NCBI GenBank assembly: GCA_944381345.1 | Contig: CALWKU010000010.1 | Location: 1-50,044 of the forward strand | From: an uncultured Christensenellaceae bacterium | GTDB taxonomy: Bacteria; Bacillota; Clostridia; Christensenellales; UBA3700 | Reading direction: 5' to 3' | Length of the DNA: 50,044 bases | Part shown: positions 99 through 50,044 of the stretch, in pieces | How the letters are laid out: each line of letters starts with the position of its first letter | How positions within the stretch are numbered: the stretch's first letter is position 1 | Made by a program: the position numbers and the translations under genes | The notes under the pieces: generated by a model | The model's database searches: none | Seen by the model: only the letters and a program-made list of their open reading frames with translations | Told to the model about the DNA's origin: nothing

Positions 99-113
99 AT
101 ATTATCTTGTTTG

Positions 114-190: not shown

Positions 191-202
191 ACGTTATTGC
201 TT

Positions 203-278
203 TGGTCGGGGTGAAGAGACTCGAACTCCCGGCCTCATGGTCCCAAACCACGCGCGCTACCAACTGCGCCACACCCCG
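203..278 (-). tRNA. tRNA-Pro (anticodon TGG)
   Basis: The reverse complement reads CGGGGTGTGGCGCAGTTGGTAGCGCGCGTGGTTTGGGACCATGAGGCCGGGAGTTCGAGTCTCTTCACCCCGACCA. The acceptor is CGGGGTG/CACCCCG, the anticodon loop is TTTGGGA, and CCA is encoded. Confidence 0.9.
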
Positions 279-7878: not shown

Positions 7879-7892
7879 AAAACGTGTAATGC

Positions 7893-9281
7893 TTATTTGT
7901 TGTTTTTGCCCCTCAACATACGCAGGAACGCGGGCATATTGCCGCCGTTCTTATCCTCGGTTTTTGGCTCCGGCGCGCGATCGTACTCGTTAGCGCGCTG
8001 TCTGCCGTATCCGGCGGCGTCGTCGTATCCCCTGCGCTCGTCCAGACCTCTGCGGTCGTCGTAGCGTCCGCCGTCATACTTGCTCTCGGAAGCAAATCTG
8101 TCGAAAGACGGCTGCTGCTTTGCCTGATCGTCCTTGCGCCCGTACAGAGCGTCGACGGCGGCGTTGTTGCGCCTGTTGTACTCGTCGATCACCGGATTGC
8201 TCGCGCCCAGACCGTTGTTGTATTCGCCGGGACGGCGTTCCTCACTCTTGCGGAAGATGTCGTCGAAGTTTTTGCGCTGAGCGCCTTCCTGCGGATCGCG
8301 CATGGGCGCGGGTTTCTCCTCCTCAAGGTCTTGCTGAGTGTCGTCGAAGCCCGTAGCGATCAGAGTTACGACGGCGGTGTTGTTGAGCTTGTTGTCGTAT
8401 CCTATGCCGAAGATAACGTTGCCGTTGGGAGAAATAACGTCTTTGACGCGGCTGACCGCCTCGTTGACCTCGTCTATCGCAAGATCGTCGCCGCCCGCAA
8501 CGTTGATGATGACGTCTGTAGCGCCCGCAATGGTGGTCGCAAGCAGCGGGCTTTGGATCGCGGCGCGGACCGCGTCCATCATCTTGGCTTCGCCCTCGCC
8601 CACCCCCAGACCGATATGGGCAAGCCCCTTGCGCCTCATCGTCGTGCGCACGTCCGCAAAGTCAAGGTTTATCATCGCCGGCACGGCGATCAGATTGCTG
8701 AGACTTTGCACTGCCTGACAAAGCACGTCGTCTGCGCGGTGGAACGCCTCAACGACCGGCGTGCGCGCGGGAAGGACTTCGAGCAGCTTAGCATTGGGAA
8801 CGACGAGGAGCGTGTCCACGTAGTTACGCAATTTGTTGATGCCGTCGATAGCGTTCGCCATACGCTTTTGATGCTCGAACGGGAACGGCTTGGTGACGAC
8901 GGCTATCGTCAAGATATCCATATCTCTCGCCAACTTGGCGATCACGGGCGCAGCGCCCGTACCCGTACCTCCGCCCATACCTGCGGCAATGAACAGCAGG
9001 TCTACGCCCTTGAGCTGTTCGCGCAGCTCCTCGATGGACTCCTCCGCCGCTCTTTGCCCGATCTCGGGCATTGCGCCGGCGCCAAGCCCTCCCGTGAGCT
9101 TCGCGCCTATCTGTATCTTTGTCGGGGCTTTAGAAAGAGTGAGCGCCTGCATATCGGTGTTGACCGCGACGAACTCCGCGCTCTCTATCCCCGCTTCGAT
9201 CATCCTGTTGACGGCGTTGTTGCCGCCTCCGCCCACGCCGATGACCTTGATCCTTGCTGCTCCGGTAACCTGATCGGGCAT
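7893..9281 (-). CDS. ftsZ: cell division protein FtsZ with a long R/D/Y/G-rich C-terminal linker
   Basis: Contains IKVIGVGGGGNNAVNRM and the tubulin signature GGGTGTGAAP. The C-terminal peptide is MPAFLRMLRG. The start is taken at ATG 9281, which has the SD GGAGG 8 nt upstream. The ORF-track extension to 9383 runs into ftsA. Confidence 0.95.
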   Translation of the reverse strand: MPDQVTGAARIKVIGVGGGGNNAVNRMIEAGIESAEFVAVNTDMQALTLSKAPTKIQIGAKLTGGLGAGAMPEIGQRAAEESIEELREQLKGVDLLFIAAGMGGGTGTGAAPVIAKLARDMDILTIAVVTKPFPFEHQKRMANAIDGINKLRNYVDTLLVVPNAKLLEVLPARTPVVEAFHRADDVLCQAVQSLSNLIAVPAMINLDFADVRTTMRRKGLAHIGLGVGEGEAKMMDAVRAAIQSPLLATTIAGATDVIINVAGGDDLAIDEVNEAVSRVKDVISPNGNVIFGIGYDNKLNNTAVVTLIATGFDDTQQDLEEEKPAPMRDPQEGAQRKNFDDIFRKSEERRPGEYNNGLGASNPVIDEYNRRNNAAVDALYGRKDDQAKQQPSFDRFASESKYDGGRYDDRRGLDERRGYDDAAGYGRQRANEYDRAPEPKTEDKNGGNMPAFLRMLRGKNNK

Positions 9282-23234: not shown

Positions 23235-23904
23235 CTTATTACGCAAAGACGAAGCGCTTGCCGCGCACGGAAATATATAAAAACAGACGCCGTAACGACT
23301 GTCCCTCCCGCCCGGATATCCGATTGACGCGTCGAAAAACCGAATTACGATCCGCCCGAAACACTTATCCATACGTTTAGCCGACACGATCTGCCTCCGC
23401 GCCGACGCATTAGCGCGCCGATCGGTGAACGTCAACGCAGGCGGCGCATAAATGACCCTCCCCGCAAACGTCGATCTCGCATCGACCGACAAATACCGCG
23501 CAACCGCCGCGCCGAACGCAAGCTCCCGGCAACAAAATCGCGCTTCTCTTCGCCTCTGCGACTTGGCGAAGATTTACCTAAACTCGGTTATCGAGTCGTC
23601 GCCGCATCCGCTCTTCTCACACATCAACCGTATACCGAATATATTGAAAGTGGGAGCTTGAAATAGTTATAGGATATATCTATATTATTTATAAATCTTG
23701 TAAAATGTAAATTTGTGCACGTTTGTGTATTATAGAACATATATAACAATTTATGTACTGTTTTGGTATGTATTATTATGAAAATTCAGCTAATACAGAA
23801 CAATTTGCCGCGTAAGTCGCAAAAATTCGTCCGCAAGCATATAGATGTATAGCTGCCGAACAGGTGCGAAAATCTCATCTTTCGGCTAAAGGAGGAATAC
23901 ATAT

Positions 23905-24582: not shown

Positions 24583-24607
24583 GCGGAGGCGCGCAAAGCG
24601 TCTCCGC
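24583..24607. terminator. hairpin between convergent genes (possible bidirectional terminator)
   Basis: GCGGAGGCGC-GCAAA-GCGTCTCCGC forms a 10-bp stem with one G-T pair. There is no clear U-tract. It abuts the stop of the giant minus-strand gene. Confidence 0.35.
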
Positions 24608-27600
24608 TATTTGTACACTCTCGTGACCTCGATCACACCCTTTCCCGGCATCGGACGGAACTCGGTGCAATTGAGATAGGACAGCCCGTCCGAGCGGATG
24701 TGATCGCCGTCGCCCTTTTCGTATTTTATCCTGTATTCCGTCCCCTCGAATCGCAGCGTGACTTTCAGCTTTTCGGGATCGAAAGCCGCGGGGCGTCCGA
24801 TGCGGATCAGCCCTTTGCGCATCTCTATCCCGACCGCCCTTTCCGTCACCGCGGTACGAAACCAGCCCGCGCTGCCGGTGTACCAAGTCCAGCCGCTTTC
24901 GCCGCGCTTGTCCTCGGCGGAATATACGTCCGCGGGCAGCGCGTACGGCTCGCCGAGACGCATATCTCCGAACCTTGCGGCAGCGGTGGACGGACACAGA
25001 TCATACATAGCCCTTGTCGCTTCGTCCGTCCTGCCCGCGTCAAACAGCGCGAGCATATACCATATCGCCGCATGGGTGTACTGTCCTCCGTTTTCACGCA
25101 CGCCGGGCGGATATGCCGAAATATAACCGGCATAGTTGCGTTTATCGAACGGCGGGTCGAACAGCTTTACTGCGCCTATCCCGCCGTCGTACAGCTTTGA
25201 CGCGCTGTCCAACGCGCGCATACGCGTTTTTTCGTCGCCTATCTTTGAAAGCTGCGCCCACGCCTGGCAGATGAGATCGAGCGTACAGACTTTCCCGTCT
25301 CTTCCGAGCCACACGCCGTCGTCGGTGAACGCCCGCGCGAATTTTTTGCCGTCGAACGTATTCTCCGCCGCCATTGCCAACATTTGCGCGATATGCAGAT
25401 ATCGCTGACCCTTTTCGTAACCTACTGCCGCCGCCCAATCGCGCAGCGTTCTGACCGCGAACATCGTGAGCCATACGCTCTCGCCTCTTCCTTGCGAACC
25501 TATGTCGTTCAGCGCGTCGTTCCAATCCCCGCCGCCTATCTTCAACAAGCCGTGATCGCCGACTTGAAGCGCGTTTTCTATCGCTTTATCGCAATGTTCT
25601 TCCACCGTGCCGGACCCGGCGATCTCCGGCGTCTCGTATCTCGCCTCGGCTATTCCGTCGAGCGGCGGCGATTTCAGGAAGCCGGCTTTCTCTCCGAGCA
25701 GCCCCTTGTCTCCCGTGACCGCGACGTAACGCGCCGCAAACCACGGCAAAAACAGTTTGTCGTCCGATATCTTCGTCCGCACTCCCGTGCGCGGCGGATG
25801 CCACCAATGCATCACGTCGCCTTCGAGGTATTGATGCGCACAGACGTCGAGGAAGATGTCCTTCGCCCTCTTGCCGTCGAAAGGAATGATCGCGGCGGCG
25901 TCCTGCAATATATCGCGCGCGCCTATCGCTCCGCCCGCCTGATAATATCCGCATCTGCCGAAAATGCGCGACGAATATATCTGTACGCTCAGCCATCGGT
26001 TGAAGAAACAGTCGAACAACGGGTCGCCGCTCTCTATCTTGACGGGATCGAGCGCGGAAAAACGCCTCTTGGTGTCCTCGACCCCCGCGACAACGTCGGC
26101 GAGAGTCAACGCGCCCAACGCGTCCTTGTCGCGCGAAAGCACGATCGCAAACACACTTCTGCGCGAGCGCTCGGTCTCTATCTCGAAAGAAAGCGCGGGA
26201 TAGGGAGATCTCGCACCCGCGCGAACCCCGCGCGACAATGCGGAGACTACGGGAGCGGCGTCCTCCGAAGGTATAGCGCGCGCGCCCAAACACCTCGCAA
26301 AAACCTCTTCGCCCGTCGAGCAATTGAATGCGCGCAGCATATCGTCTGCGACTCGTTCGCATGCGCAAAACGCGCATCCGTCCGACGCTGCGAGCGAAGG
26401 GCGCAAGACCCAATACGCACGCTTTACGCACTCGTTGTCCGACAGCGTGCGAACTATCGTAGCCGAAAAATCGCCGCCGCCCCACACGCTCGTCTCCGCG
26501 TCCCAATTTATCTCCGACACCCTCGACGAAAACGTCGTAGAGCCGGGCATATGACGGACAAATCCGCCCTCTGTCAGACGATTGACGCGCACATATCCGC
26601 CGCCGGACGCCGCAAACAGCTCCTCGCAAGGCTTGTCGTCGGCAAAGTCGTTGCGCCACGCGGCAAGTTTTCCGAAATAGGCGCTTCCCGCCCAACGGAA
26701 TCCTCCGCCGTTCTCCGTCACGACTATTCCGCCCCTCTCGAGGTTTATCACGTTGGAATAGGGCTTTGTCGGGCGGCGCGTCACGACATACGCGCCGTCT
26801 TTGTCAAACCCTCCGCATCCGCATTCGAGCAGCTGCGGCAGCACGCGCTCCTCGGTCTCCGACTCCTTTAGCGCGCTCATTGCGGAAACAAACGTCACAC
26901 CTGCGGGCTGTTTGCCGTCTATGAACGCGCCCGCGAGCAGTCCGCGTTCCGTCTCTTTGTCCGCCGCGACGTCTATAAGACGGACGAACGACAGCCGTTC
27001 GAGATCGGAGATGCCGCTTTCTTCGATCAAATTGCGTCTTACCGTCGCGTCGTAAACGTCCTTCTCTTTGTACATCACGACGAGCAAAAAATCAATCCCA
27101 GCAAGCGCGCACGCGGTACACGCCTTGACCTTTGCGGCAAAATCGGAGCAGTCGCCGTATTTCAGCACCACCGTCTTTTTGTCCTCTTCCGTCTTTGCCG
27201 CGCCGCCCCTCTCGACCGAGCGCGCGCGTACCGCGTCCGCGGACAACGGCAGCCACAGCAAGCGCGCCGCATAGTCCGAAAATATCTTAGCGCCCTTTTC
27301 TCCGTCGATATATTTGGCAAGTACCCCTCCGTCCGACGCAGACGAAGCGGCGATGCGGACAAAGTCCTCTCGCGCAAGCGCGTTCAGCCTCGGCGATAGC
27401 TCTTCTTCCGTCCGCGCGCAAATCGTGATCACCGTAACTTCGCCGCTCTCGCCCGGCGCGACGGTCAGCTTGCCCGAAAAGCCGAGACACGGCGACATCA
27501 CATAGCCCGTCCTGTTGCGCGGCGAATACAGTCCCTCGCTCAGCCGGCGAAAATGCGCGGCGTCGCAGTCGGGCGTTATCTCTTTCAATCCGCCCAAGGA

Positions 27601-30600
27601 CAGCGCCGCGATCATTCCTCCCGTCCGCTCGCGGCTCACTCGCTCCGCAGTCAAAAGCGATCTTCGCGCGTCGTATGCGGTGTTGATGAACATATCGTCA
27701 AAACAGGGATGGGCAAAGTGATCGGCGCGCCGCGACAACGCTATACGACAATAGTAAACGAACGTGTACTCCCGCGCGGAGTCGCCGTCGTTAAAGACGC
27801 GGTACGTCCTTACCTCGCCGCCCATACCTCTCGGCACGGCTATGTCGAGCGTGCAGTTCCCGCACGAAAAATGCGCGCCCTCGCTCGAAAACACCGCCTT
27901 TGCGTCCGTCCCTTTCCTCAGCGGCGCATAGGTAGGCGACGACGCTTCGTCTTTGTACATAAATATACCGAACGCGCCCTCATCCTCCGCCGCATCGCCG
28001 CGGAATACGTTTACGTCGGCGTCGCAAAAGCGGGAGTAGCCGCACCCTCTGCCGTCCGCGACGACGCAATACTCGCCTCCGCTCGCCGCCCATACGTCGG
28101 ACAGTTCGGCGGGCGAAGTCTCGTACTCGAACCTTGCCGCGCCTCGGCAGGATACGAACGGCTGACCTATACGTCCGACCGCCCTGTTCTCGCTGCGCGG
28201 TTCGGACATCAAAAGCCTTATCGCTGGAGCGAGATCGGACGAAGCGAACAGCTCTTCGATCGCCCCCGGCGCCGACAGTTCCGCCATCGCCGCGAGGATC
28301 ATCCCCTGGTGGTGCGTCATATGCGAATATACCGTGTTTTCTCCGCAGGAAAAGTCGATCGCCTCATAAAACCCCAACCGCCCGAAGTATCCGCTCTCTC
28401 TCAGAGCGGCGAGATTTTTGAGCGCGGCGTGCGGTCCGACGGGCGCGGCAAGCGCGCTCGCGTACGGCGCGATCACTTTGTACTTACACTCGCCCGACAG
28501 CGCGAGCAGATCTATGCCGTGCGCGCGGTATTGATAGTTGCCCTTCTTGTCGAAGGCATGGTATCCGCTCTCGCTTATGCCCCAAAAGCCTCTGCATCCG
28601 CGCAGTCTCATCTTGAAAACCGCGCGGCGCACCGACCGCTCGAGTTCTCCTCCGGGCGGCGACTTTACGAACAGCTCCGGCATCAGATACTCGAACGCCG
28701 GCCCCGACCACGACGCAAGTACGGGCAGCGCCGCGCCGAGTCTGCTTGTACCGAGCCCCGACCACTGTTCGGACGAGCCGGACGCAGCGCACCCTATCGC
28801 TACGGCAAGTCTCGCCTCGGAAGCGAGCAGGTCGTACACTCCGTCGTATTCGCCTCTCTTGGCGTCGTATCCCCGCGCGAACAGCCCCCTTTCTCTGTCA
28901 AAGAATGCGGAAAAGTCGGCGCTTGCCATCATTTCGGACGCAACAGACGCTCCGTCGCCGCGCGCTGCGGCGCGGCACGCTCCGCACGCTACCGAAAGAC
29001 AGGCGAAAAAATTGCCGCTGTCCACAAAGGAGACGTATTCGGGCGGCACGACGTTGCCGTCGAGATCGTACCAATTGTAAAGGTGTCCGCGCCACTTAGG
29101 CAGCTTTTCAAGAGCTTTGAGCTTTTCGCATACTTTTGCAGCCGCCGCCTCGTCCGAGATCAGACCGCATTTTGCAGCGCATATATCCGCGATCAGCCAA
29201 AAGCCGAGATCGGTCGGCGAAACGGTCGCGCTGCGTCCGATCGGAGGATAGATCTGCACGTTGTCGCACGGCAGTCCGTCGCCGAGCGAATCGAAATAGG
29301 CATACGTCCGCGCGGCGTATTCTTTGACTTGCTCTCTCTCCTGTGCGGTCGGCACGCGCGTCTGCGCGGCAGGGACAAACGCGAGCGAAAACCGCGCCGC
29401 GGCTGCGGCGAGATATGCCGCCGCCCACATCGCAAACGCAAAATTGTCCCAAAACATTGCCGCAAACGCCGTCAAGAGCGCGGCGCCGGGCAACACCGTC
29501 GCCGCATGACCCGCCGCATTCTCTTTGTCCGACGACGCGAATGTCCTCCACTCCGTCAGTTTTTCGGGCGAAAACAGGGCAAAAACCGCACATTTGAGCG
29601 CGAGCAGCGCGGAGTTGGCAGCTCGCATCGGAAGCAGAGCAAAGTCGGCTATCGCATTGACGAGCGTCTTTGCCGCTCCGACGAGCACGCAGACCGCGCG
29701 CCGTCCCTTGGCGCGTATCGCGTTCTTTGCGACGCAGGCGAGAGGGACGGCAAAACACGCAAAGGCAGCCGCCGCTCCCAAAGTCGCTCCGCCCGTAGCG
29801 AAGAACAGCGCGGTCAGCGCAAACGCCGCAATCGGCGAAAACACGGCGACGGCGTTGGAGAGGATGATATAGACGTATGCGGCGTTGTCTTTAGCCTTGT
29901 CCAACACGCCGAGCAATATCAGATCGCCCCTCTGCCACCTGCTCGATCTCGCAAAGTCTGCGGTAGGTCCCTGAGGCGGCAGCTCCGATACGAGTACGTC
30001 CGCCGCACCCACGTTCATCACCGCGCCCTCGGCGATGTCGTGACTGAGCAATCTTCTCCCTTCCAGCTTTGCGGTCTTGCGCGCAAACGCTTCGAGCCGA
30101 TATATACCTTTGCCGCAAAACACCGCCGTACCGCAAAGGTCGAACATCAGATCGGAGTGGCGCGCATAGCCGACATATCCTCCCGACCGCGCGAGCGCAT
30201 AGCGCGACTTTGCTCTTCCTCCGTCCGCATACGCGCCGAACGCGAGCATATCGTACTTCTTAGCCAAGGGATGACGTATCGAGTCGATCGCCCGAGCTAT
30301 CGCGCCGGGCGCAAGCAGAGCGTCCTCGTCGACGACGACAACATATTCTATCTTGCCGTCGCACGGCGGCGTAATGCGGAATTTTTCGCCGTTTCCGCTC
30401 AGCCTCAGCTCGTTATAGTCGGCGATCGCCCCGCGCTTGCGGTCGCGGGCGCGCCATTTCCCTCCTTTTTTGACCCTCTTTCTGACCATGACTTTAAGCC
30501 CTCTCTCTCCGCATTCGGCAAGCGCGGCGAGCAAAGGCGCATCCTCTTCCGCCTCCTCCGTTTGGGCAGGCGGCAGATCGCAAAGCAAAAGATATGAGAC

Positions 30601-31965
30601 TATATCCCGGTCGTTGCACGCCCTTATCGCGGCAAGTCTGTCCGCCGCCCCGCGCACGCCCTCGACACTCGACGCATACACGGGCATCACAACCTCGGTG
30701 CGGCATGTTTCTCCTCTCGGTTTGCCGACAAGGCGGGGGCAGGGACGCCTGACAAGCGCGCTTTCCGCGATCGAAGCCGCCGCAAATTCGCATACCGGAA
30801 AAAAGGCGAAAAAGCCGCTCGCCGCGCATATGACCGCAGCGGCGCCCCCTCCGGCAAACACCGCCGAAAGCGCTGCGAGGAGCGCAGCGGTCAAAAACAC
30901 GCAGACAGCATACGCACGCGCGGGCAAGACTTTGCGTCGAGGACGTCTCCCTCTCAGCTTGGCGGCTATCAGTCTCGGCGAATCGAACAGATATACGCCG
31001 AAATGCTCCCCTCTCTCCGCGCCCAGCGCGACGGCAGCCTCGGCAAGAGTGCGCTCCGAAACCCCGTATCTCGCCGCGAGTTTGGCGATACGCGCGTGAT
31101 AGGCATGCTTGGAGGCGACGTCTGTGGCGGCAAAATCGGCGTCGCTCTCCGCGATCGCCGCTCCCGGAAAAAGCGACGCGAGAAAGCGGTCGTCCAACGT
31201 TTCGCCAAGTCCGTTCAAGAGAGCGAATATCCTGTCGGATCTTTGGGTCAACTCCGTCGTCAACGCAATGAACGCAGCGTCTGCGCCGTCGTCGGCAAAT
31301 CTCGGATCGACGCGTTTGCCCGCACGCGCGAAGTAATGGAGATAACCCGTCTTTTTGACTCGTCTGCGATCGACGGACGCGTCGGCAAACGCCGCTTCTC
31401 TCGAATCTCCGATCTCCGTCAGTTTGCGTGCGGTGCGCCGCCACAGCGAAGTCGCCGCCGCGGTAAACGCGAGAGGGAGCGCGCATACTTCCGCATGGTT
31501 GAGCGGCGTATATCGGACAAACGCAGTCAAAGCTCCGCGCAGTTTTTCGCGGTCGGAACATAGCGACGGCGACGCGCATACTGCTTTTGCGAGCGCAAGC
31601 ACGCGAGCGTCCGCTCCCGAATGCGGCAGCGCAGCCAACGCGCCGTAACCGCCGGGAGGCAGCATCGCGGCGATAGCATGGTATTTTTCCGCAAAATTAC
31701 TCTCGCACCGCTCGAGTTCGACGCCGTCCCTGTCTGCGGCAACTATGCGCCGGTATGCTTTCGCGGCAAAAAAAGCGTCGCCTGCCCGAGAAGGAGCCCG
31801 TCCTACCGGCTTTACGTCGTGCAGCGCAAGCGCGAGACTTTTGAGCGCGGCGGGCGTCAACTCCCCCGTTTCCGGCGTCTTTGCGCGCGACGGAGTCGTA
31901 AGCACCAACGCCGCCGCGGCGACAAATATCAATACAAGCAAAGCAATGACCGCATAGATCAACAT
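24607..31965 (-). CDS. cyclic beta-1,2-glucan synthase-like giant: membrane GT84-type glycosyltransferase, (alpha/alpha)6 middle domain and GH94 phosphorylase-type C-terminal domain
   Basis: The product is 2452 aa with N-terminal and internal TM segments. GT motifs are VVVVDEDALL (DxD), LLSHDIAEG and RWQRGDL. The middle region contains GISESGY. The C-terminal domain has the GH94-type motifs GGGDWNDALN and GGQYTHAAIW. The start is at ATG 31965, preceded by the SD GGAGGA. Confidence 0.85.
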   Translation of the reverse strand: MLIYAVIALLVLIFVAAAALVLTTPSRAKTPETGELTPAALKSLALALHDVKPVGRAPSRAGDAFFAAKAYRRIVAADRDGVELERCESNFAEKYHAIAAMLPPGGYGALAALPHSGADARVLALAKAVCASPSLCSDREKLRGALTAFVRYTPLNHAEVCALPLAFTAAATSLWRRTARKLTEIGDSREAAFADASVDRRRVKKTGYLHYFARAGKRVDPRFADDGADAAFIALTTELTQRSDRIFALLNGLGETLDDRFLASLFPGAAIAESDADFAATDVASKHAYHARIAKLAARYGVSERTLAEAAVALGAERGEHFGVYLFDSPRLIAAKLRGRRPRRKVLPARAYAVCVFLTAALLAALSAVFAGGGAAAVICAASGFFAFFPVCEFAAASIAESALVRRPCPRLVGKPRGETCRTEVVMPVYASSVEGVRGAADRLAAIRACNDRDIVSYLLLCDLPPAQTEEAEEDAPLLAALAECGERGLKVMVRKRVKKGGKWRARDRKRGAIADYNELRLSGNGEKFRITPPCDGKIEYVVVVDEDALLAPGAIARAIDSIRHPLAKKYDMLAFGAYADGGRAKSRYALARSGGYVGYARHSDLMFDLCGTAVFCGKGIYRLEAFARKTAKLEGRRLLSHDIAEGAVMNVGAADVLVSELPPQGPTADFARSSRWQRGDLILLGVLDKAKDNAAYVYIILSNAVAVFSPIAAFALTALFFATGGATLGAAAAFACFAVPLACVAKNAIRAKGRRAVCVLVGAAKTLVNAIADFALLPMRAANSALLALKCAVFALFSPEKLTEWRTFASSDKENAAGHAATVLPGAALLTAFAAMFWDNFAFAMWAAAYLAAAAARFSLAFVPAAQTRVPTAQEREQVKEYAARTYAYFDSLGDGLPCDNVQIYPPIGRSATVSPTDLGFWLIADICAAKCGLISDEAAAAKVCEKLKALEKLPKWRGHLYNWYDLDGNVVPPEYVSFVDSGNFFACLSVACGACRAAARGDGASVASEMMASADFSAFFDRERGLFARGYDAKRGEYDGVYDLLASEARLAVAIGCAASGSSEQWSGLGTSRLGAALPVLASWSGPAFEYLMPELFVKSPPGGELERSVRRAVFKMRLRGCRGFWGISESGYHAFDKKGNYQYRAHGIDLLALSGECKYKVIAPYASALAAPVGPHAALKNLAALRESGYFGRLGFYEAIDFSCGENTVYSHMTHHQGMILAAMAELSAPGAIEELFASSDLAPAIRLLMSEPRSENRAVGRIGQPFVSCRGAARFEYETSPAELSDVWAASGGEYCVVADGRGCGYSRFCDADVNVFRGDAAEDEGAFGIFMYKDEASSPTYAPLRKGTDAKAVFSSEGAHFSCGNCTLDIAVPRGMGGEVRTYRVFNDGDSAREYTFVYYCRIALSRRADHFAHPCFDDMFINTAYDARRSLLTAERVSRERTGGMIAALSLGGLKEITPDCDAAHFRRLSEGLYSPRNRTGYVMSPCLGFSGKLTVAPGESGEVTVITICARTEEELSPRLNALAREDFVRIAASSASDGGVLAKYIDGEKGAKIFSDYAARLLWLPLSADAVRARSVERGGAAKTEEDKKTVVLKYGDCSDFAAKVKACTACALAGIDFLLVVMYKEKDVYDATVRRNLIEESGISDLERLSFVRLIDVAADKETERGLLAGAFIDGKQPAGVTFVSAMSALKESETEERVLPQLLECGCGGFDKDGAYVVTRRPTKPYSNVINLERGGIVVTENGGGFRWAGSAYFGKLAAWRNDFADDKPCEELFAASGGGYVRVNRLTEGGFVRHMPGSTTFSSRVSEINWDAETSVWGGGDFSATIVRTLSDNECVKRAYWVLRPSLAASDGCAFCACERVADDMLRAFNCSTGEEVFARCLGARAIPSEDAAPVVSALSRGVRAGARSPYPALSFEIETERSRRSVFAIVLSRDKDALGALTLADVVAGVEDTKRRFSALDPVKIESGDPLFDCFFNRWLSVQIYSSRIFGRCGYYQAGGAIGARDILQDAAAIIPFDGKRAKDIFLDVCAHQYLEGDVMHWWHPPRTGVRTKISDDKLFLPWFAARYVAVTGDKGLLGEKAGFLKSPPLDGIAEARYETPEIAGSGTVEEHCDKAIENALQVGDHGLLKIGGGDWNDALNDIGSQGRGESVWLTMFAVRTLRDWAAAVGYEKGQRYLHIAQMLAMAAENTFDGKKFARAFTDDGVWLGRDGKVCTLDLICQAWAQLSKIGDEKTRMRALDSASKLYDGGIGAVKLFDPPFDKRNYAGYISAYPPGVRENGGQYTHAAIWYMLALFDAGRTDEATRAMYDLCPSTAAARFGDMRLGEPYALPADVYSAEDKRGESGWTWYTGSAGWFRTAVTERAVGIEMRKGLIRIGRPAAFDPEKLKVTLRFEGTEYRIKYEKGDGDHIRSDGLSYLNCTEFRPMPGKGVIEVTRVYK

Positions 31966-32010
31966 AATTCCTCCGCGCTTTCGCGCACGGTGATTATTGC
32001 CTTTTAAGGC

Positions 32011-32037
32011 AAAAAAATGCCGCGCACCCGGCGCGGC
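32011..32037 (-). terminator. rho-independent terminator between the GH16 gene and the glucan-synthase-like gene
   Basis: The minus strand reads GCCGCGC-CGGGT-GCGCGGC followed by ATTTTTTT, about 20 nt after the GH16 stop. Confidence 0.7.
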
Positions 32038-32058
32038 AAAAACCATGAAGTCCGTCGT

Positions 32059-39406: not shown

Positions 39407-42400
39407 TCAAACGGACAGCATCCCTTCGACATTGACGATAACTCTCTTTTGGGCGATCGCGTCATCGAGGACATACCCTATCCAATCGAGCGCAGCCTTG
39501 GTCTTTTTCCCGCCCAACAGATTGGACGCCTCTTTGACGGCGTCGTCGCGCGAGAGCTTTCCTCCGCATTCGAGCGCGCACTTGATCGCGGCGAGAATTT
39601 CGTCCGGGTACATACGCGCGATGTCGCGGACGTTCTTTGCGTCCGACGGACGGAAAGTCTCCACCGTCTTGTCTACAAAGAACGCTTTGTCCTCTATCTC
39701 CCTGCGCAGCGAAGCGAACATATCGCAGTAGGCGGTCAGCTGCGCGATCGCCTTTTTCGCGGTCGCAGGCACGGCGAACTGCGCGCACAAGCGGGTCAGC
39801 AGCGTGCGCAGCTCGATCGGCGATTCGCGGTCGATGATCGCGCGTATCTTCTCGACGATCTTGTCCTTGCTTGCGGGGTTGAGCACGAAGTCCGCGCCCG
39901 ACGCCTTTGCCGCCGGTTTGACGGCGAACGCCTTGTACGGTTCTTTGTACTTGGCGACGATGTCGCGCATCGCCTTTTTGCCCAGCGCGCGCTTCTCGAC
40001 GAGCGCGGACACCGCATCCTTAATCCTCTGTATCTCGCGCTTGGGATTGTTGAAGTAGTTGACGCACCAGACGTGGTAAGTATTCCAACCGAGACGGCGC
40101 AATATACGCGCATGCATCGTCACGCGGTCGCGCACGCCCTTGAATTTGAGGTCGTTCTCGCTGTCGGCGAGTACCGCGAGGATATAGCGGTCGGGGTTGC
40201 GCGGGTCGACGATCGCAACGTCGATCTTGAAGTCGGATACGCCCACGTTGCTCTCGCAGGCGATGCCTCTGTCTTTGAGTTCGCGCGCAAGCTGCTCTCC
40301 TATCCCCTCGTCCGTTCTGCCCATATCGGTGTTGCTGATGGCGAGCATATCCTTGCCGCGCTCCGCATATTCGAGGAAGTATTTGAGACACTCCACGCCC
40401 TTACTGTTGGTGCGGCTGAGATCTATCATATTGCCGCGTATCGCGCTGAATACGCACATCTCCGAGCGTGCGCGCGTGACCGCGACGTTGAGACGTTTCT
40501 GTCCGCCGTTTTGATTGATCGGTCCGAAATTGAGCGACAGCTTGCCGTTTTTATCCGGACCGTAGCCCACGCTGAACAGTATTACGTCGCGCTCGTCGCC
40601 CTGCACGTTTTCGAGATTTTTGACAAACAGCGGCTCTTCCCGCTCAAACGCCGCCGAGTCAAGCCCCTCTTCGTGGATGCGCTTGTTGAGTGCTGTCTCG
40701 ATGTAATTTTGCTGAGCTATGTTGAAAGTGACGACGCCTATGCTCTCCTTGTTCTTGACGGGATCTTTGAGCCTCTTGACTATGTCGGCGACCAGTTCGT
40801 CGCCCTCTTTTTTGTTGCACTTCTCGCCGCCTCTCTCGTAGACGCCGTCCACATAGCGGAACGTCACCTTGCTGTTGAGTTCGTTGGGCGACGGGAAGGT
40901 CAAAAGCGTGTTGTCGTAGAAAGTCGCGTTTGAGAATGCGATAAGGCTCTCGTGACGCGAACGGTAATGCCAACGCAGTCTGTTTTGAGGCATACCGAGC
41001 GCGAGACAGTCGTCGAGGATGCTCTCGAGGTCCTCCGACTCGTAGTTGTCCTCGTCGCGCACGTCCGCGTTGAAGAACGTGGTCGGAGGCAGCTGCTGCG
41101 GATCGCCGACGACGATAAGCGACTTTCCTCTCACGATGCTGCCCACCGCCTTACAGGTCGGCAGCTGCGACGCCTCGTCGAAAATGACGAGGTCGAACTT
41201 GTCCAGATCAACGTCGAGGAATTGGGTGACCGAGGACGGGCTCATCATCATACACGGACAGCACGCTTTGAGCAGCGTCGGGATGTTGGCAAACAACGTC
41301 CTCAGCGTCATCCCCTTCATATTGGTCTTTTCGGCGCGCATCAACAGCACTCGTTCCGTGCTTTGAGCGCCTTCGTCCTCGGGACGCGGCAGGCGCGCGA
41401 CGAGACGGTTGAAGATCTCCGAACGGGTGAGCCGTTCGTACTCGTCCGTCATCTCGCGGAACTTGGCGGACGTCTCCTCGAGCGACATACCCGAAAAGCG
41501 GCTGAGCGTCTCGTCGAGCAGCAGCTCGCTGCGCACGAAGTTGAGATACACGCACTTTTTGAAACAGCTCAGCACGTCCGCCGCGGTGATCTCGCCGTTG
41601 CCGAGAGGTCCGATCACAAATTCCAGACCGCTCGCGCGGCACTTTTGGACTATCTCCTGATAGCGGCACCAATTGGGGACGTAATCAAAGTTTTTCTGAA
41701 TGTTGGAGATATACTCTATCTTTGCGCCAAGCTCCGCGCCTCCGCACCAGCCGTCCGTTCGGTAGACGTCGCAGAACGTCTTGATCGCGCGCTCGTAGCC
41801 CTCGTAGGCGTAGACGTAATATTGCCCGTGCAGATTTGAACCGTAGCGCGTCAGCGCGGCGCAGCTCTCCTCGAACACCCCGACGTCGAGGTCGGCGTAC
41901 AGATCCGCCGCCGCGCCGTAGAGTTCTTCTATCGCTTCGCAATATTCGGCGACCGTCTTTGCGTCGGCGTCCGGCGCGCCGAACACGACGCGCAGCTCCT
42001 TGGCTGTCTTGCCTGCCATACGGCGCGTCTGCTCGCAGCGCGACAAATAGCCGAAGAACGCCTGTCTCTGCTCCTTTTCGACGCCGTCCGGCATGAGCTT
42101 ACGCAGCTTGCGCGACGGACCTTTGCCCCCGGCAGCCTCCGCGAGGTCGTCCTGCGGGACGTCGGCGGGATATGCACCGTACCGCGCGCGGTAGTCGGTC
42201 ATCATCATCGCCGCCTTGTTGCTGAGGTTGAGATAGTTGTCCACAAGATCCTTTTTGTTCGGATTTTTGTCGGCAAAATAGCTCGCGGCAAACTCCTTGT
42301 CCAATCCGAGAGACAGCTTGTACAGCGCCTTCAATTTTTGGTCTGTCAGCGACACCGTGCGCACGCTGTAATACGGCAGCAGATTGCGCGCGGAAGAGCG

Positions 42401-45040
42401 AAGATTGCGCAATTGGTCAAGCGCGATGTCAAGTATCGGTCCGCCCTTGGCGCGCCACCCGTCGTCGTACTCAAAGCCGCCTATTCGTTTGAACGGCGAT
42501 TTTTGGATGTCGCCGCATTCCTTCGCGCGCAGCGACAATTCGCCGAGAATCTGCAGATATCCTCTGAACGAGTCCGCAGTCAGCTTTTCGTAGAACAGCG
42601 AATCTATACGCAGACAGTCGGGCGCGTCCTGGTTTTCGAAATATTCGAGGATGCCCTCGTACAGCGAGATGCCGAGATAGCGCTTGCGGTGCATCGCCGC
42701 GAGTTCGCCGGCGAGCGCGTCTATGCACTCTTTGATCTCGCCGAGTTTTTCCTGCATATCGGCTTCGGAAACGCCGGCTTTGAGACCCAGCGTGTTGACG
42801 ATCTGTCCCAAGACCGCGGTCTTGTTGGTCTTGCCCGAATGCAGTTCGAGACAAAAGTCGGCAAGCCCTATCGATTTTAGCCTGCGGTGGACGACGGACA
42901 GCGCCGCCTTCTTTTCGGCGACGAACAGCACGCGTCTGCCTCTCACGATATTGTTGGCGATGATGTTGGTGATCGTCTGCGATTTGCCCGTGCCCGGAGG
43001 TCCGTGCAGTACAAAACTCTTGCTCAAACTGTCGTAGATCGCCGAATATTGCGACGAATCGGCGGAGATGGGAAGATACATCCTCTCCTCTCCGACATAC
43101 GCCTCGTCGCTGCTGCGGTCGGACAGATCGAACGCTCCCTCGGGCAGTTCGAGCCTGTTGTCGAGCAGCGACGCGACTATCGGGTGTTCGCGGAATTTTT
43201 CGGTACGGTATTTGATGTCGTACCAAAGCTGATAGTTGGCGAACGAAAGACTTGCGAAAAACGCATCGCCGAACACCTCCCAGCCCTTCATATCGACCGT
43301 CTCGCGCTTTATCCGCGCGATAACGGACATAAAACTCTGCTCGCCGCTCAGCGCGACCGTGCCCAGCCCCCTTATGTCGAGATTGAATTGGCGATAGAGA
43401 AATTCCAAAAGCGTGGAGTTGAGCCTGACGTCGTCGGTGTTGATCTCGGCGGTATATGTCGGCGAGGCAAGCCCTTTGCGCGTCATCGTCACGGGGAAAA
43501 GAAAGAGCGGCGCGTACTTGTACTCGTTTGCGTTCTCCTCTTTCCAACGCAAGAAGCCTGCGGCGAGATAAAGCGACGTAGTGCCGGTCTCCTCCTGCAC
43601 GCTGCTCTCCTTGCGGAATAGGCGGAACAGCGTCCCCTCATGCTCCTTGGCGTCGTAGACGGACAGCAGCCTCTTGTTGGAATATTCGTAACCGACAAAG
43701 TCGGCGAACGGCTTTGTATAGCCGACATGGGCGAAGTCCTTGGCGAGTTCTATGCCCGCCTTCTCCGCCTCCTTCGCGCCCGGCTCGACGGTGAAAGTCT
43801 TGTTTTTGTCAAGTGCGGAGAAGAGATTTTGGAGCGACGGGGTGAGCAGCTTGCACGCCGCGCGCGAGATCTTGAAATTGAGCAGCGCATTGCGCATATC
43901 CATATCGAGCAGCTTGCGCTCCCATTGCGCGATCTTGCCCGTCTCCTTATCGCCCTCGACCGCGCCCTTGAATTCGCGGATCTGCGACGGACGCAGTTCG
44001 GGCGCAAAGTCGCGGCTCTCCTCGAGGTCGTATCCGCCGCCCTGTCTGCGCTTACGCTCGGGCAGAGGTCTGATGTTGATGATACGCGCGCGCTTGATGT
44101 CGACAAACAGCCCGTCGTCAGCGTGTTTGAGCGCGTTTTTGGCGTTGCGCTCCGCCTTTTCAAACGACGACCCCTCCGAGATGTCGTCCATACATATGAG
44201 CGTGAAGTCGTTGACGCCGGAGGACGTCTTTTTGGCGAGAAAGTCGGCGTCGTCCCACACAGTTGACGGACAGCATTCGTCCGTCAAAAACACGCCCGCA
44301 TACCATCTGCCGCCGAACTTGCCGACGACGGCGTTGTGCCCTTCGCTCTCGACGAGCGACGCCATGAAAAGCGCAAGTTCCGGTCCTGTTGCAATGCCCG
44401 AATCGAACAATTCTCTGTGCGCAACCACTTTGAAGTCGTCGCCCGGCGTATCTTCGAGGACGAATTTCTCCTCCGCTATCACGCTGTAACAGGCTGCGAA
44501 ATAGTTGCGCACGCCGTTGCGCGAGCCGTAGCCCTTCGAAACGGACAGCTTCCAATCGCGGGCGCGCTGTTCGGCGTCCGCGACGACCTTGTTGACCTCG
44601 GCGGTACGCTTGACGAACGCCGCGAGCGATTCGGGCGACGCGCCGAAATCGCACTCGTCGAACGCGAGTATATCCGTCTTGACGCTCGCGCTCATCACCT
44701 GCTGCTCGCCCACGAAGATCTCGACGTCGAGGTCGCCCTCGGTGCGCTCGTCCATCGCAACGAGGCATGTCGGCGAGCAATTGACGTCGAGATTGAACCT
44801 TGCGGTCGTCCTTTTGGGGATGACCTGCTGAACGAATTCGTACGGCACGACAAAGTCGGGCTTTGAGGTCACCTTGATGCGAATGTCCTCTATATCGTTT
44901 TCGGAAGTATTTTTCAGATAAAAACGCTTTATCGGTCTGATGCCGTTTTGCAAAGCGTAATAGCCGATAGTATCGGCGCATTCCAACGTAAGCTCGAACG
45001 CCCCCTCTTTGACGCTTGTCACGTTCTTTTCTTCGGACAT
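39407..45040 (-). CDS. giant SF1 (Upf1/DNA2-like) helicase with a DUF4011-like N-region, a Vsr/MTES_1575-like endonuclease fold and a DUF3320-like C-terminus
   Basis: The product is 1877 aa. Helicase motifs are Walker A HGPPGTGKSQT, motif II VIFDEASQL, motif III VVGDPQQLPPT, then LRWHYRSRHESLIAFSN and motif VI VAVTRAR. A REase-like block follows the helicase (DFKIDVAIVDP...LAVLADSE...ILRRLGWNTYHVW), then a ~250-aa C-terminal domain. The start is at ATG 45040, preceded by the SD AGGAG. Confidence 0.85.
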   Translation of the reverse strand: MSEEKNVTSVKEGAFELTLECADTIGYYALQNGIRPIKRFYLKNTSENDIEDIRIKVTSKPDFVVPYEFVQQVIPKRTTARFNLDVNCSPTCLVAMDERTEGDLDVEIFVGEQQVMSASVKTDILAFDECDFGASPESLAAFVKRTAEVNKVVADAEQRARDWKLSVSKGYGSRNGVRNYFAACYSVIAEEKFVLEDTPGDDFKVVAHRELFDSGIATGPELALFMASLVESEGHNAVVGKFGGRWYAGVFLTDECCPSTVWDDADFLAKKTSSGVNDFTLICMDDISEGSSFEKAERNAKNALKHADDGLFVDIKRARIINIRPLPERKRRQGGGYDLEESRDFAPELRPSQIREFKGAVEGDKETGKIAQWERKLLDMDMRNALLNFKISRAACKLLTPSLQNLFSALDKNKTFTVEPGAKEAEKAGIELAKDFAHVGYTKPFADFVGYEYSNKRLLSVYDAKEHEGTLFRLFRKESSVQEETGTTSLYLAAGFLRWKEENANEYKYAPLFLFPVTMTRKGLASPTYTAEINTDDVRLNSTLLEFLYRQFNLDIRGLGTVALSGEQSFMSVIARIKRETVDMKGWEVFGDAFFASLSFANYQLWYDIKYRTEKFREHPIVASLLDNRLELPEGAFDLSDRSSDEAYVGEERMYLPISADSSQYSAIYDSLSKSFVLHGPPGTGKSQTITNIIANNIVRGRRVLFVAEKKAALSVVHRRLKSIGLADFCLELHSGKTNKTAVLGQIVNTLGLKAGVSEADMQEKLGEIKECIDALAGELAAMHRKRYLGISLYEGILEYFENQDAPDCLRIDSLFYEKLTADSFRGYLQILGELSLRAKECGDIQKSPFKRIGGFEYDDGWRAKGGPILDIALDQLRNLRSSARNLLPYYSVRTVSLTDQKLKALYKLSLGLDKEFAASYFADKNPNKKDLVDNYLNLSNKAAMMMTDYRARYGAYPADVPQDDLAEAAGGKGPSRKLRKLMPDGVEKEQRQAFFGYLSRCEQTRRMAGKTAKELRVVFGAPDADAKTVAEYCEAIEELYGAAADLYADLDVGVFEESCAALTRYGSNLHGQYYVYAYEGYERAIKTFCDVYRTDGWCGGAELGAKIEYISNIQKNFDYVPNWCRYQEIVQKCRASGLEFVIGPLGNGEITAADVLSCFKKCVYLNFVRSELLLDETLSRFSGMSLEETSAKFREMTDEYERLTRSEIFNRLVARLPRPEDEGAQSTERVLLMRAEKTNMKGMTLRTLFANIPTLLKACCPCMMMSPSSVTQFLDVDLDKFDLVIFDEASQLPTCKAVGSIVRGKSLIVVGDPQQLPPTTFFNADVRDEDNYESEDLESILDDCLALGMPQNRLRWHYRSRHESLIAFSNATFYDNTLLTFPSPNELNSKVTFRYVDGVYERGGEKCNKKEGDELVADIVKRLKDPVKNKESIGVVTFNIAQQNYIETALNKRIHEEGLDSAAFEREEPLFVKNLENVQGDERDVILFSVGYGPDKNGKLSLNFGPINQNGGQKRLNVAVTRARSEMCVFSAIRGNMIDLSRTNSKGVECLKYFLEYAERGKDMLAISNTDMGRTDEGIGEQLARELKDRGIACESNVGVSDFKIDVAIVDPRNPDRYILAVLADSENDLKFKGVRDRVTMHARILRRLGWNTYHVWCVNYFNNPKREIQRIKDAVSALVEKRALGKKAMRDIVAKYKEPYKAFAVKPAAKASGADFVLNPASKDKIVEKIRAIIDRESPIELRTLLTRLCAQFAVPATAKKAIAQLTAYCDMFASLRREIEDKAFFVDKTVETFRPSDAKNVRDIARMYPDEILAAIKCALECGGKLSRDDAVKEASNLLGGKKTKAALDWIGYVLDDAIAQKRVIVNVEGMLSV

Positions 45041-45068
45041 ACTCTTCTCCTGCCTTATCACGAAAATG

Positions 45069-48271: not shown

Positions 48272-48889
48272 ATGACAAGGTTTTTTGATATTGGCAAGAA
48301 AGTTCTATATTTTATGTACATAGCGCTCATTACGCTCCTTTTCTTTGCGCCAACTGTTCCAGCCTTGCCCGATAGAAAGCCTCTTATTGCGGTGTTTTGT
48401 CAAAGTCTCGGCGATATGCCGTCGCATTTTTCCGAGATTTTGTCCGACACAAGCCTCTCTACAGACGCACAGGCGCGAACACTGGTAAGAGACGTCTTTG
48501 TTGCAATCTTCTTTTTTGCAACGTTGATTTCTTTGATTTTCTCGCTCGTAACGTTTTTCCGCAAAAAGCGTTGTCGTCTGTTCATATTTCTTTTGTGTGC
48601 AAGCCTGTTTTTTGTTTGCTATGGCACAATATACGCCAATCTTCCCGACAACAATGGCATTCCTCGGCTTGCCTATCACTACGTCTCATATCCAAACGCA
48701 ACTGCGGTTTTTGCCCTCTTCGCTCTCTACGTCCTCTATCTCCTGCTTCGTCGTTTCTACGCCCCTGCCAAGGCGCGTGTAGTCGCCTCTGTCGAGCGGC
48801 GCAAGGCAAGCCGCAAGCCTACCAAGGACGAGCGCATAGCCGAGCTTGAAAAGCGCGTTGCGGAGTTAGAGAGCAAGGATAAAGATTAG
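48272..48889 (+). CDS. hypothetical 4-TM membrane protein with a charged coiled-coil-like tail
   Basis: Has the SD GAGGTG 6 nt upstream of the ATG, four hydrophobic helices and a C-terminal KDERIAELEKRVAELESKDKD. It lies in the lower-GC segment. Confidence 0.6.
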   Translation: MTRFFDIGKKVLYFMYIALITLLFFAPTVPALPDRKPLIAVFCQSLGDMPSHFSEILSDTSLSTDAQARTLVRDVFVAIFFFATLISLIFSLVTFFRKKRCRLFIFLLCASLFFVCYGTIYANLPDNNGIPRLAYHYVSYPNATAVFALFALYVLYLLLRRFYAPAKARVVASVERRKASRKPTKDERIAELEKRVAELESKDKD

Positions 48890-49055
48890 TCCGCGCTCAT
48901 ATTTGCCGCTTCGCCTGCCCCAGAGGACGAGTACATATACCGACTGCCGCTTGCCACCGTTGTGCCGCTCGCGTTTGTCTCCGTTATCGTTATGCGGAAC
49001 ATATTGTCCAAACAAATCAGCGCCTTTGCGGACGTCCCGCTTTTGGCTCGCTTTG

Positions 49056-50044
49056 CAAACTCACAACACCCACCCAACAAAAAAACTTACTAATACCAAC
49101 AATATCAAAAACAGCACCACACCCACCACACAAACCAATCATCTCCCAACACATCGTGACATCACCCACCTCACACCTACCACCCAAACTCACAACACCC
49201 ACCAAAACATCTCCCCTCACTCTCACAACACAACTCAATCAACTACAACACTTTTGGCAACATATCACCATCCCATATCGCCTAAAAAATCTCTCATCAC
49301 TCAACCCGCAAAACTTATTGACATACAACTCTATCGAAAACAACAACACACCCACCACACAAACAAACTGACACCACACCTACAAACCAATCATCTTCCT
49401 ACACATCATAACATCACCCACCTTACACCTGCCACACCAAATTCACAACACAAACACCAAGAACATCAACTACTCATTCACAAACATACAACTAAATCAA
49501 CCAACACACTCTCACCAACACATCATCACACTCCCCAACTTAAATCTCAAAAATCTCTCATCACTCAACCCGCAAAACTTACTGCCGCCACCTCACAAAT
49601 CAATCATCTCCCAACACATCGTGACATCACCCACCTCACATCTACCACCTCAAACTTATAACACCACCACTCACTCACAAACACACAGCTAAATCAACCA
49701 ACACACTCTCACCAACACATCATCACGCTCCCCAACTTAAATCTCAAAAATCTCTCATCACTCAAACCGCAAAACTTATTGATACCCAACTCTATCAAAA
49801 CAGTAACACACACCACACAAACATACTGCCACCACACACAAACCAATCATCTTCCAACATATCTTAACATCACCCACCTCACATCTACCACCCCAAACTT
49901 ATAACACCACCACTCATTCACAAACATACAACTAAATCAACCAACACGCTCTTACCAACATATCATCACACCCAAACTCACATTTCAAAAATCTCTAACT
50001 ACCCAACCCACAGAACTTACTTCACCTAACTCTATCAAAACAGC
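49056..50044. repeat. G-depleted (plus strand) degenerate tandem-repeat array with units of about 210-265 bp, running off the window end
   Basis: My hand count finds about 26 G in about 990 nt. The anchor ATCACCCACC occurs at 49161, 49413, 49626 and 49869. The anchor AAAAATCTCT occurs at 49285, 49549, 49746 and 49987. There are at least 4 units plus a partial leading unit. Confidence 0.9.

Follow-up and report, generated by a model that had tools for sequence, protein, structure and literature searches.

A guanine-poor tandem array beside efp in one Christensenellaceae lineage: a non-coding minisatellite with a predicted structure-free strand

We analysed a 50,044-nucleotide (nt) stretch of DNA from an uncultured Christensenellaceae bacterium (assembly GCA_944381345.1, contig CALWKU010000010.1, positions 1 to 50,044 of the forward strand; hereafter the window), the last kilobase of which is a tandem array that has almost no guanine (G) on its plus strand. 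The array is a genuine non-coding minisatellite of one lineage, and its composition, in which A and C are about equal, T is much rarer and G is much rarer again, minimises pairing on the G-lacking strand. It is possible that a structure-free, C-rich transcript of the array would serve as a giant loading tract for Rho or as an insulator, and a neutral minisatellite is a near-equal rival to that reading.

From 49057 to 50044 the plus strand contains 401 A, 387 C, 174 T and 26 G in 988 nt, while the window outside the array contains 26.2% G and 30.6% C. The fewest G residues in any 200-nt stretch number 2 inside the array, compared with 27 anywhere else in the window. The GC skew per 100 nt changes from about 0 to values between -0.81 and -0.94 from about 49100 onward, and the switch in composition is sharp, directly after ...GGCTCGCTTTGC at 49056. 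A first-pass annotation of the window, made from the letters alone, had reported a near-absence of G over the last ~1 kb with an abrupt skew out of the ordinary, and had proposed degenerate tandem units marked by two anchors. The base counts and skew per window agree with the first of these statements. As for the second, the anchor ATCACCCACC occurs exactly at 49161, 49413, 49626 and 49869, and the anchor AAAAATCTCT exactly at 49285, 49549, 49746 and 49987, four occurrences each where 0.06-0.07 would be expected by chance. A repeat finder likewise returned four copies (spacings 252/213/243 and 264/197/241, identity 62-91%). The long period was not reported by Tandem Repeats Finder, the copies being too divergent.

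Across the arrays that we compared, units are ~200-320 nt long and share a conserved core (…CAATCATCTCCCAACACATCGTGACATCACCCACCTCACA…), but conservation from unit to unit is weak, at 60-90%. The rare G residues sit at recurring unit positions, namely CGTGAC, CCCGCAAAA, TTGAC/TTGAT and TTTTGGC. C shows a ~2-nt period and short sub-repeats are present, with no clear helical or 3-nt periodicity in the array beyond the repeat harmonics. The window is an entire contig (the protein-database record of the array open reading frame (ORF) gives a longest contig of 50044), and the end of the array is therefore an assembly break. Judged against L007, one of the fetched loci that are given L numbers here, ~200 nt of array are missing from the window, so the array does run past the window end as had been supposed. 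The only other base-depleted stretch of the window, at 23636-23786, is a T-rich intergenic segment of 151 nt with 6% C, which is far milder and unrepeated.

We also found the array in OZ006985.1, a complete PacBio HiFi chromosome of 1.8 Mb from an uncultured Christensenellaceae bacterium, where it is bounded and ~755 nt long. This chromosome came from an exact-pattern scan of species-representative genomes, and L007, with a 1.33-kb copy, came from a metagenome scan. The 252-amino-acid (aa) pseudo-ORF of the array, used as a protein-database query, returned 20 related "proteins", whose contigs added 15 loci (arrays of 0.9-2.4 kb with 3-5% G). Beyond the HiFi chromosome, a further 17 fetched loci, drawn from separate metagenome assemblies, carry it. 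Since it occurs in a HiFi chromosome and in many separate assemblies, the array is real and is no artefact.

In every assembly except that of the window, the array adjoins an efp-pepP-AP endonuclease-ribF-truB-nrnA-rbfA-infB string, with the spoIIIA operon on its other side in all contigs long enough to show it. Both flanking gene sets, efp and spoIIIA, are carried by the G-rich strand, opposite the G-free one. Nucleotide identity of efp is 97-100% across the array loci, and the carriers therefore form one species-level clade, which according to cluster names is Candidatus Ornithoclostridium (Christensenellaceae) from the chicken gut. No array is present in two sister lineages (EF-P identity 88% and 83%), where efp is followed directly by spoIIIAA with a gap of 375-415 nt. 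This array-less gap in two sister lineages, together with presence in a single clade, indicates from sequence comparison that the array and the island beside it are a recent, lineage-specific acquisition.

Array length varies between strains from 0.75 to 2.4 kb, and strains differ by the gain or loss of whole or partial units. The efp-proximal terminal unit is conserved, and at least 750 nt of array are kept in every strain examined. The left edge is variable: it is joined to a 177-nt leader in the window and L016, to the interior of a membrane gene in L008, to a GNAT gene remnant in L006 and to a GNAT promoter region in L021/L022, while other strains have 1-2 kb of cargo between leader and array, including Ntox50 and Gln_amidase toxin cassettes. 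Deletions at the left end stop at differing points within units. On the efp side, the 520 nt of non-coding sequence between the array and the efp terminator are conserved (L008 8690-9215, equivalent to L007 3523-4045 and L006 4063-4610). This right flank opens with ~200 nt at 24% GC in a genome of ~57% GC, holds several invariant blocks such as GACAACATCTCATTTTGTCCATATTG, and has no Rfam match. A 47-aa ORF that starts at the array end was rejected as a gene: in L015 a stop interrupts it, L016 and L019 lack its start, and it shows no phase bias. On the efp strand of the same flank, a Cys-rich ORF of 39 aa (MDKIRCCRT…AGCECFDDKSC…) is present in L019 and carries a frameshift in L007.

In the window itself the array lies downstream of groEL, and the first-pass annotation had placed it there. 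This placement does not hold in the relatives. Near-identical longer contigs from three strains (L001-L003) are >99% identical to the window through groES-groEL and the next two genes, lose all similarity at 48879, and continue with an intrinsic terminator followed by DivIVA-like, NYN and NAPRTase genes, with no array; two further contigs end at the 48879 breakpoint. Up to 48879 the window follows the groEL locus (L001, 99.6%), and from 48713 on it is 93-97% identical to the efp locus (L007, L016, L019). In these three, the array at the efp locus comes after a paralogue of the membrane-protein gene and the same 177-nt leader. The join of groEL to the array was found in no other contig. Since 48713-48879 is common to both paralogous loci, the groEL-to-array contig is probably a chimeric assembly through this 167-nt repeat, or else a real recombination. 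L016/L017 confirm the array itself, with its canonical left edge. In the leader, at 48880-49056, no intrinsic terminator was detected and the fold is no better than shuffles.

The first-pass annotation had noted an ORF at 48903-49661 and had doubted that it was a credible coding sequence. The ORF is there (252 aa, TTG start), and the doubt was justified. TAA stops occur in all three plus frames of the arrays, at totals near expectation (14 versus 16, 9 versus 11 and 14 versus 19 expected). Mismatch phases between orthologous arrays are flat (10/9/7, 14/8/6 and 16/16/23), and orthologous arrays are separated by indels of 1-2 nt. Without codon periodicity, with 1-2-nt indels and with stops in every frame, the array is non-coding. 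A low-complexity Thr/His/Pro/Gln/Asn-rich protein gene, or a recent pseudogene, on the G-free strand is thus very improbable, even though every array has gene-caller predictions of 160-347 aa, one frame is poorer in stops than the others (2, 2 and 4) and three of the six spacings are divisible by 3. In addition to the evidence from phases, indels and stops, the frame and extent of the ORF vary between strains, so that the arrays do not behave as an ordinary protein gene whose frame is kept between copies or between strains; G is missing at first, second and third codon positions alike, in a window that is otherwise 26% G; and there are no Pfam matches. As a result of gene calling, public collections list the G-free arrays as spurious "proteins" with lengths of 143-347 aa and a high content of His, Thr, Pro, Gln and Asn (P0002-P0021).

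The array also falls outside the known classes that we considered, as had been suggested for CRISPR arrays, ribosomal and transfer RNA genes and known mobile elements. Its degenerate units of 213-264 nt are not the short identical repeats with unique spacers of a CRISPR array. Rfam returned no family for the window at gathering thresholds, nor for L006 at an E value of 1 or less. Neither the array nor its right flank had a blastn match in phage or plasmid collections, and there were 0 viral-contig matches, by which a phage, plasmid or other mobile origin was rejected. No transposase, integrase or reverse transcriptase was found among the genes neighbouring the array, and the reverse transcriptase, deaminase or recombinase that might have been expected beside it adjoins it in none of the complete loci. 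PADLOC gave no matches that would assign the neighbours a role in defence or mobility, and their Pfam matches were uninformative. A product of a template-independent Abi/DRT polymerase was likewise discarded, with no reverse transcriptase nearby and no matching composition data in the published account.

Two explanations for the missing G had been put forward in the first-pass annotation, the first being conversion of G to A on the plus strand, either by deaminase-type hypermutation or hypermutation resembling repeat-induced point mutation, or as a chemical or assembly artefact. We polarised singleton differences among six haplotypes, using the anchored efp-proximal parts of the arrays. Among the young changes, 20 create G (17 of them A>G) and 3 remove it (all G>A; two-sided binomial p ~0.0005, computed by hand). 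Calculated per site, the rates show strand symmetry (A>G 0.051, T>C 0.045, C>T 0.086, G>A 0.13) and predict an equilibrium G/(A+G) of ~0.28, compared with an observed value of 0.06. As young changes add G far more often than they remove it, ongoing G-to-A hypermutation is excluded as the cause, and the poverty in G stems neither from an ongoing deamination-type process nor from the current mutational equilibrium.

The first explanation therefore fails on the HiFi chromosome, on the 17 other loci and on the direction of the young changes, and strand-specific hypermutation, whether from a deaminase or from chronic exposure as a single strand, and a chemical-conversion or assembly artefact are in our view extremely unlikely. 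The keto-rich strand (G+T 79%) does carry the flanking genes, which is the direction expected for single-strand deamination if it is the leading strand, and polymorphic-toxin cassettes lie in the neighbouring island. Nevertheless, the array appears in HiFi and many Illumina assemblies alike, per-site G>A is only ~2.6x A>G where ~15x would be needed, the same strand is still 39% C, undoing the conversion implies a parent of ~80% G+C, and the left edge is abrupt rather than graded. A search for a G-containing paralogue that would align with A read as R had been proposed. A G-to-A-collapsed search for such a parent in ~200 kb of the same clade gave a best score of 64.6 bits, no better than the 60-80 bits of shuffled queries.

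The second explanation was that selection favours an unstructured transcript free of G. Since A does not pair with C, the excess of C over G and of A over T lowers pairing in the G-free strand; there is no such rationale for the other strand. The predicted minimum free energy of the G-free strand (988 nt) is -17.4 kcal/mol, compared with -316 to -404 for ten control segments, and swapping 10% of A for G triples the folding energy. For the complementary strand the value is -137 kcal/mol, with a fold no better than shuffles. As an RNA, the G-free strand is predicted to be essentially structureless.

The composition of this strand also resembles that of a Rho-utilisation (rut) site. RhoTermPredict defines such sites as RNA of ~78 nt or more with C>G and a C every 11-13 nt, and the sites predicted in E. 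coli have a mean C/G of 1.6 (PMC6407284). We re-implemented these criteria in 78-nt windows, of which 76-87% passed on the G-free strand, 17-34% in controls and 0% on the other strand. The arrays have a C/G of 13-15 and ~20 YC dimers per 100 nt. Rut composition, predicted unstructured RNA and absence of coding signal, which are among the criteria for a Rho terminator, are all found in the array. For release we looked for a GC-rich hairpin or the pattern G-11G-10Y-1G+1 within about 150 nt downstream, and found one GGN8YG match 147 nt past the L008 array and no GC-rich hairpin, in a region of 24% GC. No intrinsic terminator was found between the upstream plus-strand gene and the array; at the array-less paralogous locus a canonical hairpin and T-tract stand directly after the gene. 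Of the second explanation, then, the minimal predicted pairing and the rut composition stood up, no consistent promoter was found, and on present sequence evidence it would be the best remaining reading, still unproven.

We favour a Rho tract, tentatively, because the array is real, is retained beside efp, is non-coding, is rut-like and predicted to be structureless, and is followed by a 24% GC stretch; transcription, its strand and the involvement of Rho are what we infer. Under such a model, the G-lacking strand would be transcribed into a long, structure-free, C-rich and G-free RNA that would act as an oversized rut tract, with Rho hexamers able to load anywhere along it. Rho would then release RNA polymerase within the AT-rich segment past the array. 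In this way the array would shield the convergent efp-pepP-...-infB operon from transcription that leaves the strain-variable island, and it might titrate Rho as well.

Selection on composition is likely, although short of demonstration. Differences of the A/G type relative to the C/T type stand at 0.27-0.32 in old, paralogous comparisons versus 0.54-0.62 in young ones, and this scarcity of about half suggests a weak purging of G. Several points weigh against the Rho tract and against selection. The contrast between old and young differences uses non-independent pairs and possibly noisy older alignments, and neutral decay of a G-free ancestor would, at the divergence observed between units, leave roughly the 2.6-4.6% G now present. 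The RUT criteria are lax, with up to a third of control windows passing. No consistently placed sigma-70-like promoter was found on the G-free strand; promoter-like matches are at chance in L008 and not significantly above chance in the window and L022, and the opposite, C-free strand is where the promoter-like sites that recur within units are found. The gene to the left (GNAT or cargo) is, in many strains, encoded on the other strand and directed away from the array. A rut site needs only ~80 nt, and the array, at 1-2.4 kb, is 10-30x longer than that, an excess that is unexplained. Strains tolerate large left-side deletions, and the array is limited to one species-level clade and lacking in two sister lineages. 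An apparent extended -10 on the plus strand upstream of the array was set aside, as it is the -10 of a divergent minus-strand gene.

A neutral or selfish minisatellite is also a possible explanation. A G-free simple seed of the CA, CCA or CAA type would have expanded by slippage and degenerated, with units of ~250 nt re-amplified by unequal recombination, and the G-free strand would be a relic without function. The gains and losses at unit scale between strains with 97-100% identical efp would fit such a history, as would the varied points within units at which left-end deletions stop, the restriction to one clade with two sister lineages lacking the array, the weak unit conservation (60-90%), the ~2-nt C period with its short sub-repeats, a G content close to the A>G input expected since a G-free ancestor, and the failure to find a conserved motif, promoter or partner gene. 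Neutrality is less comfortable with T at ~7x G, where a C/A-only seed at current rates predicts ~1.6 to 1, with the roughly two-fold under-representation of older A/G differences, and with the retention of at least 750 nt and the same terminal unit in every strain examined. Both skews would also merely happen to minimise pairing.

Other functions can be envisaged for either strand, and both of the following are unlikely. A structure-free C-rich RNA might be a sponge or scaffold and not a terminator, sequestering a single-strand RNA-binding protein or pairing with G-rich ribosome-binding sites through anti-Shine-Dalgarno-like motifs (…AUCACCCACCUCACA…), in the manner of RsaE/RoxS and similar C-rich small RNAs of Firmicutes. 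This possibility shares the composition and predicted lack of structure that favour the Rho tract, a motif containing ACCUC/CACCUC occurs once per unit, and multivalency would account for the tandem repetition; the motif, however, is only moderately conserved in the divergent L016 and L019, no partner protein gene is linked to the array and no Rfam family matches. The other strand might instead be the functional one, either as a C-free, G/U-rich transcript (from the AT-rich flank or from promoter-like sites in the units, forming R-loops or a Rho-immune RNA) or as G/T-rich DNA. RecA prefers GT-rich DNA, and the G/T-rich strand could thus be a recombination hotspot that drives island turnover. 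Minus-strand promoter-like sites recur in the units (TTGAGA-17-GATGAT with an upstream TG) and another lies in the AT-rich flank; the G-rich strand carries the flanking efp and spoIIIA, the left flank is hypervariable with deletion junctions within units, and a C-free RNA fails the rut criteria throughout. Yet the promoter-like matches are not significantly above shuffles, nor is the minus-strand fold better than shuffles, and the loss of A that accompanies that of C has no clear rationale. Moreover, G occurs mostly as single residues, canonical G-quadruplex motifs number 0 in four arrays with two-tetrad motifs below the shuffle mean, and the abundant array k-mers are not among the strand-skewed k-mers of the genome, so that the array is unlike Chi, KOPS or SRS.

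Three specific candidates were examined and rejected along these lines. For a G-quadruplex or R-loop tract we required, on the G-rich strand, at least three consecutive G per run and at most 7 nt between runs, with the count of 0 given above. A DnaA-box cluster of the datA or DBC type (TTATCCACA, at most one mismatch) gave 0-1 boxes per array, no more than shuffles. Polar motifs of the Chi, KOPS or SRS kind were sought through the top 6- to 8-mers of the array, which, over 83 kb of sequence from the same genomes, are rare and show no skew; this is a weak test.

Among known systems, Rho rut sites are like the array in being C-rich, G-poor, unstructured and untranslated as RNA with frequent YC dimers, and in the arrangement of a tract and a downstream release zone, putative in the case of the array, between convergent transcription units. 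They differ in scale, being ~70-80 nt long with a C/G of ~1.6, whereas the array, known here from sequence alone, has 750-2400 nt, a C/G of 13-15 and 250-nt tandem units. Minisatellites and satellites of the eukaryotic type, for example telomeric or subtelomeric C1-3A/TG1-3 repeats, share degenerate tandem units with strain-variable copy number, an asymmetry between a C/A-rich and a G/T-rich strand, gain and loss at unit scale and one conserved edge. Unlike them, the array lies inside a circular bacterial chromosome and has no short perfect repeat, telomerase or chromosome end. Immunoglobulin class-switch regions and other R-loop-forming repeats resemble it as kilobase-long degenerate tandem repeats with a G-rich non-template strand beside a recombining or deleting region, but the array is prokaryotic, lacks G clusters and G-quadruplex motifs and bears no deaminase signature in its substitution spectrum.

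G-free leaders (the omega leader of tobacco mosaic virus (TMV), poly-CAA) and engineered "G-less cassettes" are 70-400 nt long, viral or synthetic, and serve as 5' leaders or assay tools. In these, as in the array, the lack of guanine abolishes RNA secondary structure and A and C dominate; unlike the case of TMV omega-type leaders, the ORF past the array is not a conserved coding sequence. The C-rich small RNAs RsaE/RoxS of Firmicutes carry unpaired C-rich motifs (UCCC; PMC2790875) that, like those of the array, could pair with G-rich Shine-Dalgarno regions, although they are structured, ~100 nt long and have defined promoters and terminators, and the array has no sequence or Rfam similarity to them. 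Within the searchable literature, we found no description of G-free, G-less or guanine-depleted bacterial repeats, nor of bacterial tandem arrays of this unit size with <3% of one base.

Table 1. Coordinates of the array, its units and its left neighbours in the window, and of homologous arrays in other loci
Feature	Coordinates	Strand	Basis or remark
Guanine-poor tandem array	49057..50044	+	Partial first unit, then four degenerate units; contig end cuts array; A 40.6 / C 39.2 / T 17.6 / G 2.6%
Partial first unit, canonical left array edge (…TTTGC/AAACTCACAACACCCACCC…)	49057..49130	+	Same junction in L016/L017; unit alignment
Unit 1	49131..49382	+	Near-identical to L006 and L007 units
Unit 2	49383..49594	+	Unit alignment
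Unit 3	49595..49837	+	Unit alignment
Unit 4, cut by contig end	49838..50044	+	L007 counterpart runs ~200 nt further to conserved terminal unit
205-aa membrane protein gene, coiled-coil tail, reads towards array	48272..48889	+	Last 167 nt (48713-48879) common to paralogue at efp locus
Leader, 177 nt, normal composition, between membrane-protein gene and array	48880..49056	+	93-97% identical to L007 1080-1259, L016 about 7890-8065, L019 about 5340-5513
Homologous array	L006 5368-4612	-	Sequence comparison
Homologous array	L007 2185-3515		Sequence comparison
Homologous array	L008 7371-8690		Sequence comparison
Homologous array	L016 8065-9110		Sequence comparison
Homologous array	L019 7665-9290		Sequence comparison
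Homologous array	L022 about 1850-4040		Sequence comparison

The island between spoIIIAA/GNAT and the array is strain-specific (L019 5610-7525, L016 5196-7898 and L007 1260-2184). Among its cargo are cassettes for polymorphic toxins of the Ntox50 and Gln_amidase (papain-fold) kinds, which have small ORFs beside them, together with a Nudix hydrolase and a divergent pair of genes without an assigned role (321-343 aa and 189-205 aa), the second of which encodes a membrane protein with a coiled coil. In the window, the middle of the 205-aa gene (48290-48712) is hypervariable: L002, L003 and L005 have no detectable nucleotide similarity there despite groEL being >99% identical, while L001 and L004 are 99.6-99.8% identical throughout. 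An exact-protein look-up of the 205-aa product found no match.

The rest of the window includes ordinary Clostridia chromosome content at 1-23200, with three transfer RNA genes (25-278, minus strand), an IspH-S1 fusion, sigE beside spoIIGA, and ftsZ with the dcw cluster (a murA-like gene, ftsW, murD, mraY, murE/F, a penicillin-binding protein and mraW). Nearly all genes of this part are on the minus strand, which is the strand of the G-rich side of the array. A 2479-aa protein encoded at 24607-32046 (minus strand) has GH94 catalytic, GH94 supersandwich and glucoamylase-like domains and resembles a cyclic beta-1,2-glucan synthase or a glycan phosphorylase. Another large protein, of 1884 aa (39407-45061, minus strand), combines DUF4011, a superfamily 1 helicase (AAA_11/AAA_12) and an MTES_1575 restriction-endonuclease-like domain; its gene adjoins tadA upstream of groES/groEL and is conserved in all related strains.

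For one strand to lack a base almost totally through 1-2.4 kb is far beyond normal bacterial skew. The array also has practical consequences: its spurious His/Thr/Pro-rich "proteins" are already in public databases, and it breaks short-read assemblies. It may be, though we hold this tentatively, that the array is a selected, dedicated "structure-free" long non-coding element that functions by composition and not by sequence and arose recently in one gut lineage. Such an element could conceivably be a kilobase-scale G-free RNA or single strand, for example a multivalent platform or sink for Rho or another single-strand RNA-binding factor. If composition alone is selected, the array would be a natural "G-less cassette", by which to test how Rho or another single-strand RNA binder reads composition, how important rut length is and how new non-coding elements arise. 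A neutral array would mean that higher-order repeats of the satellite type, with an extreme asymmetry between strands, are able to emerge and be kept in a compact bacterial chromosome. If a selected structure-free element is the true explanation, the array would represent a kind of bacterial long non-coding RNA that has not been described before.

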